Source: Pecten maximus
Taxonomy: Eukaryota
Length of the DNA: 64,000 bases
Assembly (NCBI RefSeq): GCF_902652985.1
Contig: NC_047030.1
Coordinates: 24,428,001 to 24,492,000, forward strand
Direction of reading: 5' to 3'
Numbering within the stretch: position 1 is the first letter of the stretch; the number at the start of each line of letters is the position of its first letter. This document shows positions 23,401 to 29,135 of the stretch, in pieces. A program made the position numbers and the translations under genes. The notes beneath the pieces are model-generated. The model did not search any database and had not been told where the DNA came from. It saw only the letters and a program-made list of their open reading frames with translations.

Positions 23401-26400
23401 ATGGGTAAGTCGTCCTATATGTATGCTTCCCGAACCATATGGCCATGTGACAAGTGTTATTCTCTTGCCTAAGAAAACTTCTCCGTAACTATAAGTATCT
23501 CCACTGTTAAACATAATCACATGTATAAAACAGAATCATCCCCCTGACCACACTTTCAGTAATATAAGTAACCTCTCCATAGCTGAAATAAATCACGATG
23601 TGACATCTCCACTACTACATATAAGTACATGTATCTTACCACAATGCCTCTCAGAAGCTTCCCCAATAACAGGAGTTTCTTGTGGAGGGTCCTCTGAGGC
23701 AACCATCTCAATATTAGTCAGAGATTCAACAGCTATTTCAGCCTCACTCAAGATTTCCTTGTCCTCATTGTTGTCTTTATATTTGGTGATAGAAAACCTG
23801 GAAATATTGTAGGAAGGTGTAAAGTAAGATAGTGGTTTTCCTGCCAATATAACTGGGTACCCAAAATGACACTATTCTGAAAAATTTCCTATTGAGTCCA
23901 TAGATTGAAAACTTCCGAAAACACAGAAAAATATAAAAATGGTTAATATTACACAAAACATATGTAGATCAGAAAATAGACATTCAAGGCTCAGAATTGG
24001 TGTGTGCCAGTATGTAGAAAACTAGAATTTACATGTACACTGCATTATAATGTATATACAAGACAGACTGCAGACAAGGAGCGATTCAAAAAGTCTTTCC
24101 CAAATCTAATTCAAACATGGTGGGCCTGTAACTTTTAACTTAACTGAAAATTTACTGATTTTGTGATATATGGCATTCGTATAATATATATAGGTAATGC
24201 TCATTGATTAGCTGACATGCCAGATGAATATCTGTTTACCTGTGGGTATATTCTCTATTTCCTCTACAGATACGGACATAACGTTAAACAAGAGATCCCA
24301 GAGGGATCTTGGCGCCCACTATTGAATGATCTTGATAGGTTCCATGTCAGATTAATCTTCTCTCTATTTTTCCCTTCCTCTTACTAATGTGTGTAAAATG
24401 AGAAACATCCCTCCAGTACTTTTCAAACAAGGGGAACTTATAAATGAAATTTGAGATTTACCGATAATGGCTGTATATCTGTTTACCTCTGGGTATATAT
24501 TTTCTATTTCCTCTACAGATATGGAGATAACTTTAAAAAAAAACCAAAAACAAAACCAGTTCCTCCTCTTAGAGACTTCCCTCACACGTGTTGGTTGTTA
24601 ATTAGACTTACTTAAAAACTGTGGTTGCCATCTTATGCATTTTTGTGAATAAAATATTTGCGCTGTCAGCAACATAGCAACTTTAATTCCAGATGAAGTG
24701 TGTATCTACCTGTGAGTAGATTCTCTATTTCCTTTACATATACGTAGATGATGCAGAAAACAATTCCTCCTCTTTCGAGACTCCCCACACACAGGACAAT
24801 GGTAGTGGTACTGGTAGCTGGTGGCTAACTCCTCTTCTGTACCCTGACAGGGCAGGTAGCATATCAGGATATAGTAATCTGGAACAGGGCACAAGAAAAC
24901 ATCATTAAGAAATTCCAGTTCGCATGCTTCCATACGTGATTAACATTAGTTGATATAAGTTTTTTTGCAATTGTGTAAAATGAATAACGTTTACATTTTT
25001 CTTTTTTATAAATCCAGTTCGCATGCTTTCATACGTGATTAACGTTAGTTGATAGAAGTTGCTTTGCAATTGTTGTAAAATGAATAAAGTTTACATTTTT
25101 CTTTTCATGAATCCACGTATTTTTTTCTACTTTTTATTTATACAATATATTGTGGTTCAATACATGTATGTGGACAGGTTGGTCCTGTAGAATTATATTA
25201 CAGAGAGAAAATTTTATAGCTATACATATTTTTCAAATTGAGAATACGCTTTCACCGTACACACAAATGAAAAGATATGAATTTTGAAATAAAAAGAGAA
25301 ATGCACTTACAAATGAATTTCTTCTAGAAAGTTTTTGTTTCTTGTTTACAAATAGGCAATAGTTGGATTAATTCATTATTCCTTTTTTGAACTTTTTAAC
25401 TAATTAAAAATTTGTTTATAAAAATGTATACAAACGTACATGTAAATGTTATTTATATTGATTGTGTAGAGGGACTGTACTGGGTCGATCATCGGTGACC
25501 AGGTAGCTCAATTGGTAGAGCTAATGTTCAGAGGTCTGGGTTTGAACCCCGGTCTGGCCGCTACATTTTCTCTTCTTTCGTTACAAAATTGGCACCCAGC
25601 TAAAATACCCATGGTGGTGGTATAAGGCTCTCATGTGTGTTTGAGTGCGAAGACTTGGGGAAAAGGAGGGAGGTGTGTAGCGGGACTGGACTGGGTTGAT
25701 CATCAGTGACCAGGTAGCTCAATTGGTAGAGCATCTGCCCAGTGTTCGGAGGTCCCTGGTTCGAACCCTGGTCTGGCCGCTACATTTTCTCCTCTCCCTT
25801 TACAACACTCAAGGAGCCTTTTTAAATCTTGATAAAAAAATAATAATGATACCTTTATAAGGGATGCGTTTCTTCCAGTGGAGGCTGTAATGTGTCAGGA
25901 GATGTTCCTCAGAGTTAGGTTTATACTTGGAGGTGGGACAGAGAACACAGTGGTAGCTTCCCCCACATCCACAGGACAAGTCTTCACATTTCTCTACTGG
26001 CAGATCTGCAACACTTCGCACAACAGATGCGTGCCACTGTAAATGGAATAAAGACAGTTTAATATTGTATACAGACGTAAAAGTGGAAATCATATAGGTC
26101 ACCTTAGAAGTTCAGGTCAGTGGGAATTTCCCTTTTGCCTAGTGGTAGCTATAGGATGTCAACTTAGACTGTAACTGGTTGCCAGAGTGGGCAAGATATT
26201 TTTCTTTATTACATTTTTACCACTGACATAGCGAAAATAAGTCATTCTATAAAAGTGATATTTTTCAGCAGTGAAAAATAACACTTGGTCTTTATACATA
26301 ATGACACAATCTGACCTTCCATGGTAACTAACTCCCAAATGGAGTACAACAATTTATCTTGTAACAAGTACAATACCTTAATGTCTGGAGCATCTTTTGG

Positions 26401-29135
26401 GTGAGGACAATTAACAGGCACATAGTTATCTGCCCTTTGTTGATCCATTTCCTGTCCTAGTTTCATATTAGGGTACTGATTGGCCTTCCCTGTCTGACAT
26501 CTCCACATGTGTGTTACCAACATGCTCCTATCCACAAAAATCTCGTCACAGTACAGGCAGTGGAAATGCTCCTGTATGTCCACTTGGCAATTCTCGAGAC
26601 ACAACTGAAGGACCTCATCTGCATATCATAGAAGATTTACTTAGGTCATTTTCGTTTTTGCGGTCGAAATGGTTAGACCACTCAGACAGGTATTGTTCGT
26701 TTATGAAATAAAGACGGACCTGGTGATTTTATATTGTTTTCAGACGAGCCTTGACAAAGACTTCCAAAGGCCGGCCTGTATTAACATTTGCAGGTCCATC
26801 AAGATATATATGTTTGAAATATTACAGGAGACGGAGACGGATTAATATAAGTTTTTAAAAAACTTGTTTCTGAATCCATTTCATGCTGTATTTTTTCTGA
26901 TTGTGTCTACTTTTCATGTGTTACCAATGAATGAATAAAATAAAGTTTACATTAAATATTACATTTAAAAACAGACGAACCAGTTGGTCCGCATAAACTA
27001 ACAGGCCCTTAGCCTATCTCCATCTGGAACTACATGTAAATGTGGTTTTTTTTTCAGAATGTAATTAAAAGATATAGCCTTTTACAATTCTCATATTGAA
27101 CCCCTATTAAATTGTTGCATTCAACCCAGTAAATCTATAAATACATGGTATTACAACATTAGATCAAGACTCAGTGTGCTCCATGCTCCAAGCATATTTT
27201 CTAGATATTTCACTATTAAGACAGATTCAATGTAATTTTATCAGAAATAGAAATTATTGAAAAATATGAAATTCATTTTAATTTTTAAATGATATATTCA
27301 ATATTTTGTTTTTACACTCAAACATGAAATTGATACTACTTTTACATACAGCCCTACCATTAAAGTTTAGTACATTCCAACTATTAAATACATCTCGATA
27401 TTAATATATAAACTAATCATATTAATGAATACATCTTAATTACATTATCAAATGCATTACAATTTTATACATTATGTATATATCACCATTAAATACATTT
27501 CAGTCATTATAATCAGCATTCAACTTTACTCCAGACATATTACCTAGAAAAACAACTTTAGATGGGAGTTTGTCGTCAGGAGCTGTCACCAAATCAGGAG
27601 ATTTTTTCTAAGACAGAAAATTCAATAAAAACATCATGTTAATGGCAATTTATTGTGATAAAAAAAAGAATCCAAACATTTTGTTACATCAGAAATGGTA
27701 TACAAAATTATTCCTTTCGAAGCATTTAATTATTATTATTTTTTAATTCCATATATGAACATGAACTATTGTATAATTACCACAGAATTCATGAGAATTT
27801 TTGGGTAGAACAGCTGTCATAAAATGTCTTACTTTTAAAATACAAAATGTCTAACAAATTACTTGACAACCTGTACTTAATTTTCCAAAATTATATATAC
27901 ATGTATATCTACTTAAGTTGTATACTATTACATGTACGTATATATACTGTTACAAGATTTATGTCACTAAGCTATGACAATCCTTCTCAAGCCATCTCAT
28001 ATAACATGTATGTTACCTACATACGGTACATGTATGTTTATATTTAAATCTAAAAAAAAATTAATTACTTTTTAGGCGAAATTGTATCTGAATAGTTTTA
28101 AACAAAACTTCTTAAAATAACTTATTTCTTTGCTTCATATGGCTATAAGAACAGCTACTACAGATCATATGGAGGTCTCCCATTATGTTGGCTTAATTAC
28201 CATGGTTTTGATGTGTTTTACAAGATGGGAATGGAAGGCATTTCTCTTCAACAACTGTTTTGTACAGCAAGGGCAATGGTAGTGACCCTTTGGCTTGTCA
28301 CCACAATCTCGGAAACACTTCACAATTATCATATCTGAAACAAGATCATGAAAAGAAATTATGTTGACAAATATTTTTATCTGTCACACAAAATTCAGAA
28401 AAGTTGAAGCATGTGAAAAGTAAAGAGTCATGGTCAGGGAAAGTGGTAATGGTCAATGCAAGGATGTATGATGTCGACTGATAATAAGGCCACCATGGAC
28501 ATGATATAAATTGTATATATATAAATGATCAATATAGCATATGGTATATATATAGTGTCAATGTCATCTTGAGTATATATAATACATTTCATATTAATTG
28601 CTATCATCATTTGATTTAAACATAACAGTTCTAAATCAAAGGATTACTGGATGACCATCAGGACTTGGCTCAATAACAGTAATAACTCCTATTTTGTTTA
28701 CATACCATCAAACTTGACTGAATGTGCAAAGTGTTTCAGCTCCAGATGGTCTCTAACTCGTGAAGGCTTGGCTGGTTTGAAGTGCGACTTGTCACAGAAG
28801 GGACAGTGAACTAACTTACAGCCACATCCAGAATTTTTACAATATCCCAGTCTGATGGAATCTGACAGGGAAATGATGGTTATGTCTTTGGACTTCAGAG
28901 GGTAGTCATGGTCAAGTCCACCGACATCACCATCCCCTATATCAATTTTTTCTCCATCACCTTCAGCTGTATCCACCCTGATGTCTTCCCCTGAATCCAT
29001 AACCATTTTAATATTACATGCACTATCCTCTGTAGTTGTATCCACTTGGTCTCCTGTAGCCATAACAACTCCATGGCCTTCCCCTATAGCTATACATGTA
29101 GCTACTCCACCAATGTCACTTGTAGCTATATCCAT
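18102..29135 (-). CDS. ~1350-aa zinc-finger protein: N-terminal repeated Cys/His zinc-cluster modules, AT-hook, 11 C2H2/C2HC fingers
   Basis: Coding exons 29135-28706, 28334-28201, 27607-27544, 26618-26377, 26036-25853, 24878-24710, 23797-23640, 22647-22538, 21963-21793, 21207-21141, 20425-18102. All are GT-AG and phase-consistent (total 4053 nt). The 21793/21207 junction is the least certain. Confidence 0.85.
20857..21110 (+). mobile_element. Degenerate HINE-like element with one satellite-like unit
   Basis: AACAAGAG start, ggcccaacctctcaagcccctggg core resembling the 15.6-17.5 kb unit, and an A-rich end. Confidence 0.45.
21482..21666. mobile_element. Small MITE (CAGGGCTTTTT-type TIR, apparent 5-bp TSD CTCTT)
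   Basis: caaggctttttc ... gaaaaagccctg, with ctctt on both sides. Confidence 0.5.
22725..22870 (-). mobile_element. Solo LTR-like unit containing a tRNA-like sequence
   Basis: On - strand: TGTACA...tgactctgtcggtagaatggcg...ggtcgcgagtttgatcccc...ctctttcttGTTACA. Same layout as the LTRs at 25465-25804. Confidence 0.55.
24910..25108. repeat. ~100-bp tandem duplication
   Basis: tccagttcgcatgctt(c/t)catacgtgattaac...gtttacatttttctttt twice. Confidence 0.9.
25465..25804 (+). mobile_element. TRIM (miniature non-autonomous LTR retrotransposon) with tRNA-like sequence inside both LTRs
   Basis: LTR1 25465-25585 and LTR2 25676-25804 (TGTAG...TTACA); PBS-like TGGCACCCAGC at 25590-25600; PPT GGGGAAAAGGAGGGAGG at 25657-25673; A box TAGCTCAATTGG and B box GGTTCGAACCC (one mismatch in LTR1). 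Confidence 0.82.

Follow-up and report, generated by a model that had tools for sequence, protein, structure and literature searches.

The window analysed here, a 64,000-nucleotide stretch of Pecten maximus DNA, holds on its minus strand an expressed scallop gene, LOC117344710, that joins repeated Cys/His zinc modules, A and B, to an AT-hook-like motif and an array of C2H2 fingers. The two modules form one unit (A+B), homologous to the N-terminus of Zisupton (KDZ) transposases, and the gene carries 2.5 N-terminal copies of it in a layout conserved over Mollusca. We favour, with middling confidence, the reading that this predicted four-zinc unit was likely captured from a Zisupton transposon prior to the divergence of the mollusc classes, and that it likely serves the host protein, whose gene is apparently single-copy in the genome searches made, as an extra nucleic-acid-binding module.

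Structure of the scallop gene and its zinc units

An earlier note, made from the sequence alone, had described five module exons, and all five were confirmed where it had placed them, with GT-AG ends and in the order A-B-B-A-B (Table 1). A single 3,921-nt RNA contig, running from 28923 to 18048, links them to the AT-hook/C2H2 exon, a joint on which the earlier note had made its proposal depend. Seven pieces of this contig are listed; four short exons were deduced from contig gaps, bin depths and variant rows of equal depth, the gap sizes matching the exons so deduced (198 = 134 + 64; 171; 83). RNA contigs span 28706-29074 of exon 1, and the ATG at 29135, absent from the listed contig pieces, is the RefSeq start. 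In exon 6, all three listed RNA differences are synonymous. Relative to the contigs of three of four RNA runs (from three studies; the fourth has no joint there), the window carries one extra A at 21781-21783. This single base disrupts the reading frame of the window after the modules and before the C2H2 exon, and is either an assembly slip or a rare allele.

Table 1 Coding exons of LOC117344710, in window positions.
Exon	Positions	Strand	Content	Phases and support
1	28706..29135	-	acidic leader, then module A of unit 1 (Cys core from 28841)	ends phase 1
2	28201..28334	-	module B of unit 1	phases 1-0; RNA; unit profile 49 bits
3	27544..27607	-	64-nt linker	phases 0-1; RNA contig
4	26377..26618	-	lone acidic module B, net charge -5	phases 1-0; RNA
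5	25853..26036	-	module A of last unit	phases 0-1; RNA
6	24710..24878	-	module B of last unit	phases 1-2; RNA
7	23640..23797	-	acidic linker	RNA contig + sequence
8	22538..22647	-	acidic linker	RNA contig + sequence
9	21765..21963	-	conserved unnamed central domain of ~65 residues	holds extra A at 21781-21783
10	21141..21207	-	short linker	RNA contig + sequence
11	18102..20425	-	AT-hook-like RKRGRPRK (20286-20309), low-complexity region, 11 C2H2-pattern fingers (~18290-19499), stop codon

Exon 11 scores 91.9 bits against zf-C2H2 (Pfam cut-off 25.2), each of its 11 fingers being a match to the C2H2 pattern, and by analogy with the C2H2 family the protein would bind DNA and regulate transcription. 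We take RKRGRPRK to be an AT-hook from its RGRP core, no Pfam AT-hook match being listed; RGR[PA] occurs in 9 of 12 orthologs, the scallop version standing in a basic context. The central domain of exon 9 gave no Pfam match and no PDB sequence match. Three exon searches of the scallop genome found one locus of this host type, a count to be read as a lower bound; the search with exon B1 returned two further matches, both weak, and more divergent units may escape exon searches.

Six-frame counts in the window gave two A and three B motifs, with none of either in 100 triplet shuffles. The motif counts and positions of the earlier note stand, and its spacing for module A does not, both copies reading C-x4-CGC rather than C-x3-CGC. 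The common phase-1 start that it gave for the B exons is borne out, for in each of the three a split Asp codon comes first, and five residues separate it from the initial Cys. Where the earlier note had read an exon-level duplication from B, the repeat is of A and B together, a cassette of two exons whose phases are 0-1 and 1-0.

The unit comprises about 105 residues with 16 conserved Cys/His, and the scallop protein contains two whole units and a middle one reduced to B, in which 8 Cys/His are conserved in all 12 orthologs. Exon 3 is likely the remnant of an A exon with only its last strand left; in the model of an ortholog a hairpin is predicted at 168-179 in this region. A structure model of the unit reached a pLDDT of about 90 (an initial fold from a 3-row alignment was poor, at 48). 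The predicted fold consists of two knuckle-plus-beta-beta-alpha halves, tied by a hairpin across the A/B intron and matching each other across a C2H2-like core. Each unit is predicted to hold four zincs, at sites of the types C3H or similar, C2H2, C2H2, and C2H2 or C2HC, and the whole protein about ten. As the earlier note had supposed, the modules are unnamed in that no family of the Pfam set searched, which does not include CASZ1 (PF26743), covers the unit. Foldseek with the model gave no PDB match at E <= 0.001, and a PDB sequence search gave ordinary fingers at best (E 0.034). The best VIA-align Z was 3.2, most rows lying on the lone B, so that this search barely probed the A+B unit for known folds.

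Homology to Zisupton transposases and conservation in Mollusca

A profile built from three mollusc orthologs, with no transposon row, scored 22-32 bits against six fish Zisupton-type N-termini and less than 1 bit against the orthologs' own C2H2 arrays. Together with the scallop element described below, these scores substantiate the KDZ link that the earlier note had suggested. Among the best 150 of 243 library matches, 21 have a Zisupton body, with the first unit starting at most 92 residues from the N-terminus in 20 of them, and 17 have the unit N-terminal to a C2H2 array; 30 are named, and under our partner rule 112 had no partner assigned. The fusion partners are scattered and unrelated. 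Bohne et al. reportedly described, in 2012, zinc-finger-like domains at the Zisupton N-terminus and possible domesticated vertebrate genes, so part of this link may already be in print.

In the scallop genome the two A exons match one dispersed repeat family, at no fewer than 16 and 17 other places, and the copy most similar to the scallop's own Zisupton element is exon 5 (45% identity, E 1.8e-7 in a genome-wide search). One repeat copy extends past A to include B and a transposase that is collinear with the Xiphophorus Zisupton of 1,393 aa (tblastn, in order: E 3e-45, 8e-35 and 1e-11). Single exons of this element match CxC4 (E 8.8e-5) and KDZ (E 0.023), both below the Pfam cut-offs. The transposase-bearing copy has the left end common to the family; a search of 60 kb did not reveal its right end. 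The element has subterminal repeats of 63 bp. Both element copies with both ends read are flanked by an 8-bp target site duplication, the length given for Zisupton (PMC12730594). The element has a predicted GT-AG intron between A and B, in phase 1 and five residues upstream of the initial Cys of B, the placement seen for each of the three host B exons, which suggests that the host intron was likely inherited; an RNA joint was seen in none of four runs, a count uninformative on absence. Shared intron position alone gives no direction of transfer.

At a second KDZ-type locus of the scallop genome, the 20 kb upstream hold no unit. Zisupton acquires host modules: we saw a Josephin module in it, and an F-box was likewise acquired, F-box::CxC7 fusions being reported from fish (PMC12062965). 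In the window, three Zisupton bodies gave no tblastn match at E 0.1, the KDZ core and CxC4 are absent, and the ends of the local Zisupton family were not found.

Bivalves, gastropods and a cephalopod share the unit layout, and 39 of 40 candidate ligands are conserved in 11-12 of 12 orthologs, evidence of long conservation. Lingula, a brachiopod, and Lineus, a nemertean, likewise combine the unit with the central domain and a C2H2 array; the host family may therefore predate Mollusca. For a tree, 85 units were picked by score and known context, leaving out those of unassigned proteins (LG+G4 without mixture, bootstrap not fully settled). Each of the two mollusc units is a supported clade over 10 molluscs (100/99 and 98/96), and unit 2 groups with the scallop element at no more than 94/90; a test of one clade for both gave a p-AU of 0.17, by which neither a duplication nor a repeated capture is rejected. 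The fusions with C2H2 and TINF2_N from fish nest inside starred transposon clades. The backbone is without resolution and the mollusc units lie outside any starred transposon clade, so that for the scallop gene we infer the direction of transfer.

The earlier note had overlooked that the unit is also part of vertebrate TRMT1-like enzymes and of further, unrelated fusions. In the frog and the sturgeon, a TRM-family protein has one unit, lacking the first Cys cluster of A, ahead of its enzyme domain; the label TRMT1L is our inference, the sources giving TRMT1 or hypothetical. No unit was found at the scallop TRMT1L-like locus. Human TRMT1L is described as nucleolar, with 'zinc finger motifs' (10.1101/2024.05.20.594868), and as binding 28S rRNA and tRNAs (10.1101/2024.05.02.591343); the main text of the latter contains no zinc-finger term.

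Origin and function of the unit

Under the capture that we favour, a two-exon A/B cassette of a Zisupton gene would have been spliced onto a C2H2 gene and then multiplied in tandem or captured again, the middle A decaying. This direction is favoured by the nesting of fish fusions in transposon clades, by the unrelated, scattered partners, and by the presence of the unit in frog and sturgeon TRMT1-like proteins and its absence from the scallop TRMT1L-like locus. Against our reading stand the unresolved tree backbone, the second KDZ locus, the uptake of modules by Zisupton, the status of the element intron as a prediction, the 112 matches with no assigned partner and, as regards function, the low charge of the last unit and lone B. 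N-terminal zinc domains of other DNA transposases bind element ends, and the A+B unit of the transposase may likewise bind the element's repeated ends; the host protein would gain from the unit a further surface for DNA or RNA, with the C2H2 array and AT-hook binding their own sites. A broader and more tentative proposal is that A+B is the unnamed domain, with four zincs and an affinity for nucleic acid, through which animal Zisupton recognises its ends, and that hosts took it up repeatedly: over 500 million years ago in a lophotrochozoan C2H2 regulator, and also in vertebrate TRMT1L and in fish, crustacean and hemichordate genes.

That the unit likely binds DNA or RNA is suggested by a mean net charge of +8.4 in transposon units and of +6.2 and +3.8 in host units, and by Lys/Arg at the two positions that lead into the B helix, in about 70% and 90%, respectively, of 193 units; in the scallop gene itself the last unit has only +3. 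The earlier note had pictured a unit of the same origin acting as a protein-interaction or dimerisation effector like KRAB, ZAD or BTB, which we consider unlikely, though not strained. The unit's place before C2H2 arrays, in some cases from separate fish captures, and the acidic lone B would suit such a role; isolated Drosophila C2H2 fingers with an added strand dimerise (PMC12774644), and CASZ1 fingers are required for TBX20 binding (PMC5629033). Yet net basic charge and the conserved Lys/Arg accompany the unit in every context, an RNA enzyme also carries it, and our three scallop searches, whose counts are lower bounds, gave one host locus and thus showed no expansion. The unit has no sequence match to KRAB, zf-AD or BTB (Pfam). 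A homodimer prediction for one unit with zinc, the alignment unused, scored 0.00 against a mark of 0.32 and is uninformative either way.

It is improbable, in our estimate, that transfer ran in reverse, with A+B an old host domain of the C2H2 family or a relative that one Zisupton lineage took up and spread to other genes. The brachiopod and nemertean proteins, the second KDZ locus, the module swapping of Zisupton and the unresolved backbone all fit that course, but transposon units are spread over the whole tree, which needs 9-11 label changes, and every host fusion with a resolved place (in fish) comes from a transposon clade.

HYHC is the hallmark of Castor/CASZ1, in which, as in module B, a Cys pair and a His lie upstream of a C2H2 finger that starts with H[YF]HC. 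The resemblance that the earlier note had seen is a partial one, and it is very doubtful that the modules are divergent Castor/CASZ1-type or ordinary C2H2 fingers. A zf-C2H2_CASZ1 cluster ranked third and second in two Atlas searches (0.94 and 0.93), two B exons gave weak Pfam zf-C2H2 matches (E 0.004 and 0.03), and the A and B halves align over the C2H2-like core. However, the Atlas match has 138 and 133 of 256 features in common, below the 170 typical of true members; neither the precomputed domains of five orthologs nor the 30 named matches include a CASZ1 family or Castor protein; and no A module is known in Castor/CASZ1, whose architecture differs. CASZ1 ZF1-4 repeat with a period of ~59 residues (PMC10377389), whereas scallop B alternates with A and the main scallop array is of classical C2H2 fingers, not tandem ones of that period.

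Finally, that the modules are a broken transposon upstream of a C2H2 gene, joined to it by prediction only, is suggested by the broken frame of the window and is refuted, to virtual exclusion, by the single RNA contig joining all exons, the full-length orthologs in three mollusc classes, and the window search, which found no transposase body or element end.

Relation to known systems

The unit is a compact domain outside the Pfam set searched and PDB matches, and it links three otherwise unrelated things: Zisupton transposases, an old, uncharacterised regulator of molluscs, and TRMT1-like enzymes of vertebrates. Should it bind nucleic acid, a single 105-residue construct could probe both end recognition by Zisupton and the role of the N-terminus of TRMT1L. 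If our reading is right, the scallop gene reflects a very old transposase capture onto a C2H2 protein; on the broader proposal, Zisupton would have given hosts a new binding fold on repeated occasions, with human tRNA modification among the processes reached. Among the papers that our literature search covered, none was on the unit or the scallop gene, or on transposase capture onto a C2H2 protein in molluscs.

In Zisupton transposases of the Xiphophorus type (CxC4, CxC7, Ulp1) the unit begins the protein, as in the scallop gene; the latter differs in having no catalytic core, CxC4, element ends or dispersed copies, and in carrying multiplied units ahead of an AT-hook and a C2H2 array. Captured transposase DNA-binding domains also underlie host genes of the ZBED, THAP and SETMAR types. 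Like KRAB, ZAD and BTB, and like the Drosophila CGx-phi dimerising fingers, where strands are added beside the finger core (PMC12774644), the scallop unit sits N-terminal on a C2H2 array; it differs from KRAB, ZAD and BTB in sequence, in being basic and, as far as searches with lower-bound counts reach, in showing no gene-family expansion in the scallop genome. With the ZBED, THAP and SETMAR types and fish F-box::CxC7 (PMC12062965) the scallop gene shares a transposase domain kept in a host without its catalytic core under long constraint, and it differs from them in that the domain is another, unnamed one, that it was joined to a C2H2 array rather than an effector, that it forms a tandem two-exon cassette, and that it dates from the divergence of the mollusc classes or earlier.

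Exon structure and splicing of LOC117344710

LOC117344710 comprises 11 exons, and our exon model places its five Cys/His exons where the earlier note had read them, in the order A-B-B-A-B, with every B exon starting in phase 1, as described there; its opening Asp codon is split by the intron, and the first Cys comes five residues on. Motif A occurs twice and motif B three times in the window, and neither occurs in 100 shuffles; the opening of module A, which had been read as C-x3-CGC, is C-x4-CGC. The proposed joining of the module exons to the C2H2 exon is borne out by a contig of sequencing run X2 (record 9), which spans 28923 to 18048 via all module exons, four short exons having been deduced from exact gap sizes and depths. 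The RNA label of the runs (X1, X2, X3 and X8) is presumed; their contig joints agree with the predicted introns. By test, the product is a C2H2 protein. At 21781-21783 the window has one A nucleotide more than three of the four runs and its frame breaks; the RefSeq protein of Pecten maximus, P0004, matches the window and has a 22-residue stretch at this site that is absent from the contig. Exon 3, 64 nt long, probably represents an A exon that has decayed.

Features of the window (first eight rows) and related loci of the scallop genome (G000)
Feature	Position	Strand	Remark
LOC117344710	29135 to 18102	minus	
CFAP74 exons	39564-53078 and beyond	minus	upstream of LOC117344710, same strand
LINE, frameshifted	1364-4788	plus	endonuclease and reverse transcriptase
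Gene with F5/8 type C and C-type lectin exons	8555-12893	plus	
Tandem arrays of 49, 159 and 27 bp	5214-7755, 15953-17437, 55941-57625		
Central domain, unnamed, ~65 residues	21765-21963		conserved from scallop to Lingula
Decayed copies of exon 6 3' end and donor site	24217-24274, 24484-24528		83% and 78%; adjoin repeat of very high contig depth
36-bp inverted repeat	29826-29934		upstream of LOC117344710
Zisupton copy (L018-L020)	C8:35274701-35304700	minus	transposase ends in Josephin domain, 43 bits, above cut-off
Ulp1-type protease frame	L020:8840-9451	minus	just outside left end of C8 element
Second KDZ-type transposase locus (L049, L051)	C11:35076907-35079346	minus	CxC4 above cut-off

The A+B unit and Zisupton transposons

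Modules A and B travel together as one unit, and a profile built from three mollusc orthologs retrieved 243 representatives of it with an E limit of 0.001. In an alignment of 193 units, its roughly 105 residues include conserved Cys/His that fall into four groups (C-x2-C-C...H; C-x2-C-x15-H-x3-H; C-x3-C...H-x-H; C-x2-C-x12-H-x3-C/H). Of 40 candidate ligands, 39 remain Cys or His in at least 11 of 12 orthologs and one does so in 8, with most other Cys/His kept in 3-10 rows. No Pfam family matches the module exons at its cut-off, as expected from the claim of an unnamed domain, and PDB searches with the unit returned weak C2H2 matches only. A zinc-free AlphaFold2 model of a gastropod ortholog unit (pLDDT about 90, 55-row alignment) has two knuckle-plus-beta-beta-alpha halves and a hairpin across the A/B intron site; a similar hairpin precedes the lone B. 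From the exon phases, 0-1/1-0, 0-1/1-0 and 0-1/1-2, a two-exon A/B cassette is probably what was repeated; of the exon-level duplication claimed earlier, the repeated exons stand and the single exon as the repeated piece probably does not.

The suggested link to KDZ transposons was confirmed: the A exons match a dispersed repeat family in the scallop genome (at least 16 other places at E 0.05-0.8; at least 17 at E 2e-7 to 4e-4 in a second search), and the unit begins Zisupton-type proteins. In the C8 element, A is followed by a B module, then by a CxC4-like exon, a KDZ-like region and finally a Josephin domain; the element is collinear with a Xiphophorus Zisupton protein of 1,393 aa (P0006); passages of PMC12062965 place CxC7 at 1333-1393 of the platyfish protein. 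Module A and module B of this element fall on different predicted exons; the predicted GT-AG intron between them is in phase 1 and, like that of the host gene, precedes the first Cys of B by five residues, and no joint across it was seen in four RNA runs. An excerpt of PMC9297572 describes Zisupton as multi-exonic. The element's ends carry a 63-bp repeat in long inverted arrays, and the two shorter copies of which both ends were read each show a target duplication of 8 bp, the length given for Zisupton in part of PMC12730594. With a host-only profile, the N-termini of six fish Zisupton-type proteins reach 22-32 bits, and the finger arrays of the orthologs themselves stay below 1 bit. The best 150 of the 243 matches include 21 with a Zisupton body, 17 with a C2H2 array, 45 other proteins of at least 300 residues and 67 short ones. 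Judged from sequence, the scallop unit is almost certainly homologous to the Zisupton transposase N-terminus. The second CxC4 locus, with no A+B unit found within 20 kb upstream, counts against the link being universal. Neither a transposase body nor an element end was found in the window, which rules out LOC117344710 as a transposon itself.

The Josephin domain of the C8 element occupies the position of Ulp1 in the fish protein, and the element's right end was not found in 60 kb. Shorter copies (L003-L017, L021-L034), up to 99% alike, in which a stop cuts module A and which carry the 63-bp arrays and target duplications, form a family that was likely recently mobile.

Conservation and distribution

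The layout of LOC117344710 is shared by Mizuhopecten, Ylistrum, Solemya, Sinanodonta, Mercenaria, Argonauta, Haliotis, Patella, Gigantopelta and Batillaria. Compared with the window protein, rows that are not scallop-like show 37-50% identity in whole units, 32-45% across the C2H2 array and 3-22% over linkers. In a tree, the first and the last whole unit each form one supported clade across 10 molluscs, and the two may reflect duplication or two captures. The central domain and a C2H2 array also occur in two Lingula proteins, one with five units and one with three, and in a Lineus protein; the E values, from a set of about 180, are 9e-5 before inclusion, 3e-6 and 1e-3. By eye, the central domain, which has no Pfam or PDB match, looks KH-like.

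All 28 species-named matches are from bilaterian animals. Among 83 proteins scanned, the unit is also fused to frog and sturgeon TRM methyltransferases, TINF2_N, RRN3 and a PHD protein. The frog and sturgeon TRMT1-like enzymes (P0065, P0122) have one unit each, without the first Cys cluster. No unit was found in 40 kb at the scallop TRMT1L-like locus (L042-L045); two TRMT1-like copies on contig C9 (L039, L040), 7 Mb apart, have long uninterrupted frames of 470 and 449 aa.

Putative function and comparison with known systems

The unit has a mean net charge of +8.4 when in transposons and +7.0 when in other hosts; the two mollusc units average +6.2 and +3.8. Two positions entering the B helix are Lys/Arg at about 70% and 90%. 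In other DNA transposases, N-terminal zinc domains bind element ends. Because of these basic features, the 63-bp end arrays, that precedent and the RNA binding of human TRMT1L (excerpt of 10.1101/2024.05.02.591343), which is nucleolar (excerpt of 10.1101/2024.05.20.594868), we propose that the A+B unit may be a nucleic-acid-binding domain. On this view a two-exon cassette was captured from Zisupton, and a C2H2 regulator would have retained it to provide a second surface for binding. Taken jointly, origin, direction of transfer and putative function stand about evenly poised between right and wrong.

A unit acting as a protein-interaction effector is a possible if doubtful alternative. Transfer from host to transposon is unlikely; in the tree, fish fusions nest inside starred transposon clades. 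That the modules are Castor-type fingers is highly improbable. An artefactual module-C2H2 gene is practically dismissed by the X2 contig that joins these exons.

The observation in the earlier note is real. The papers we searched yielded nothing on the A+B unit or LOC117344710, and the founding Zisupton papers may already note the unit. Vertebrate genes derived from Zisupton are reported in a passage of PMC3424704 (citing Bohne 2012). We do not place LOC117344710 under Castor or KRAB/ZAD/BTB; by analogy, it would function in the manner of other host genes that incorporate captured domains of transposases.
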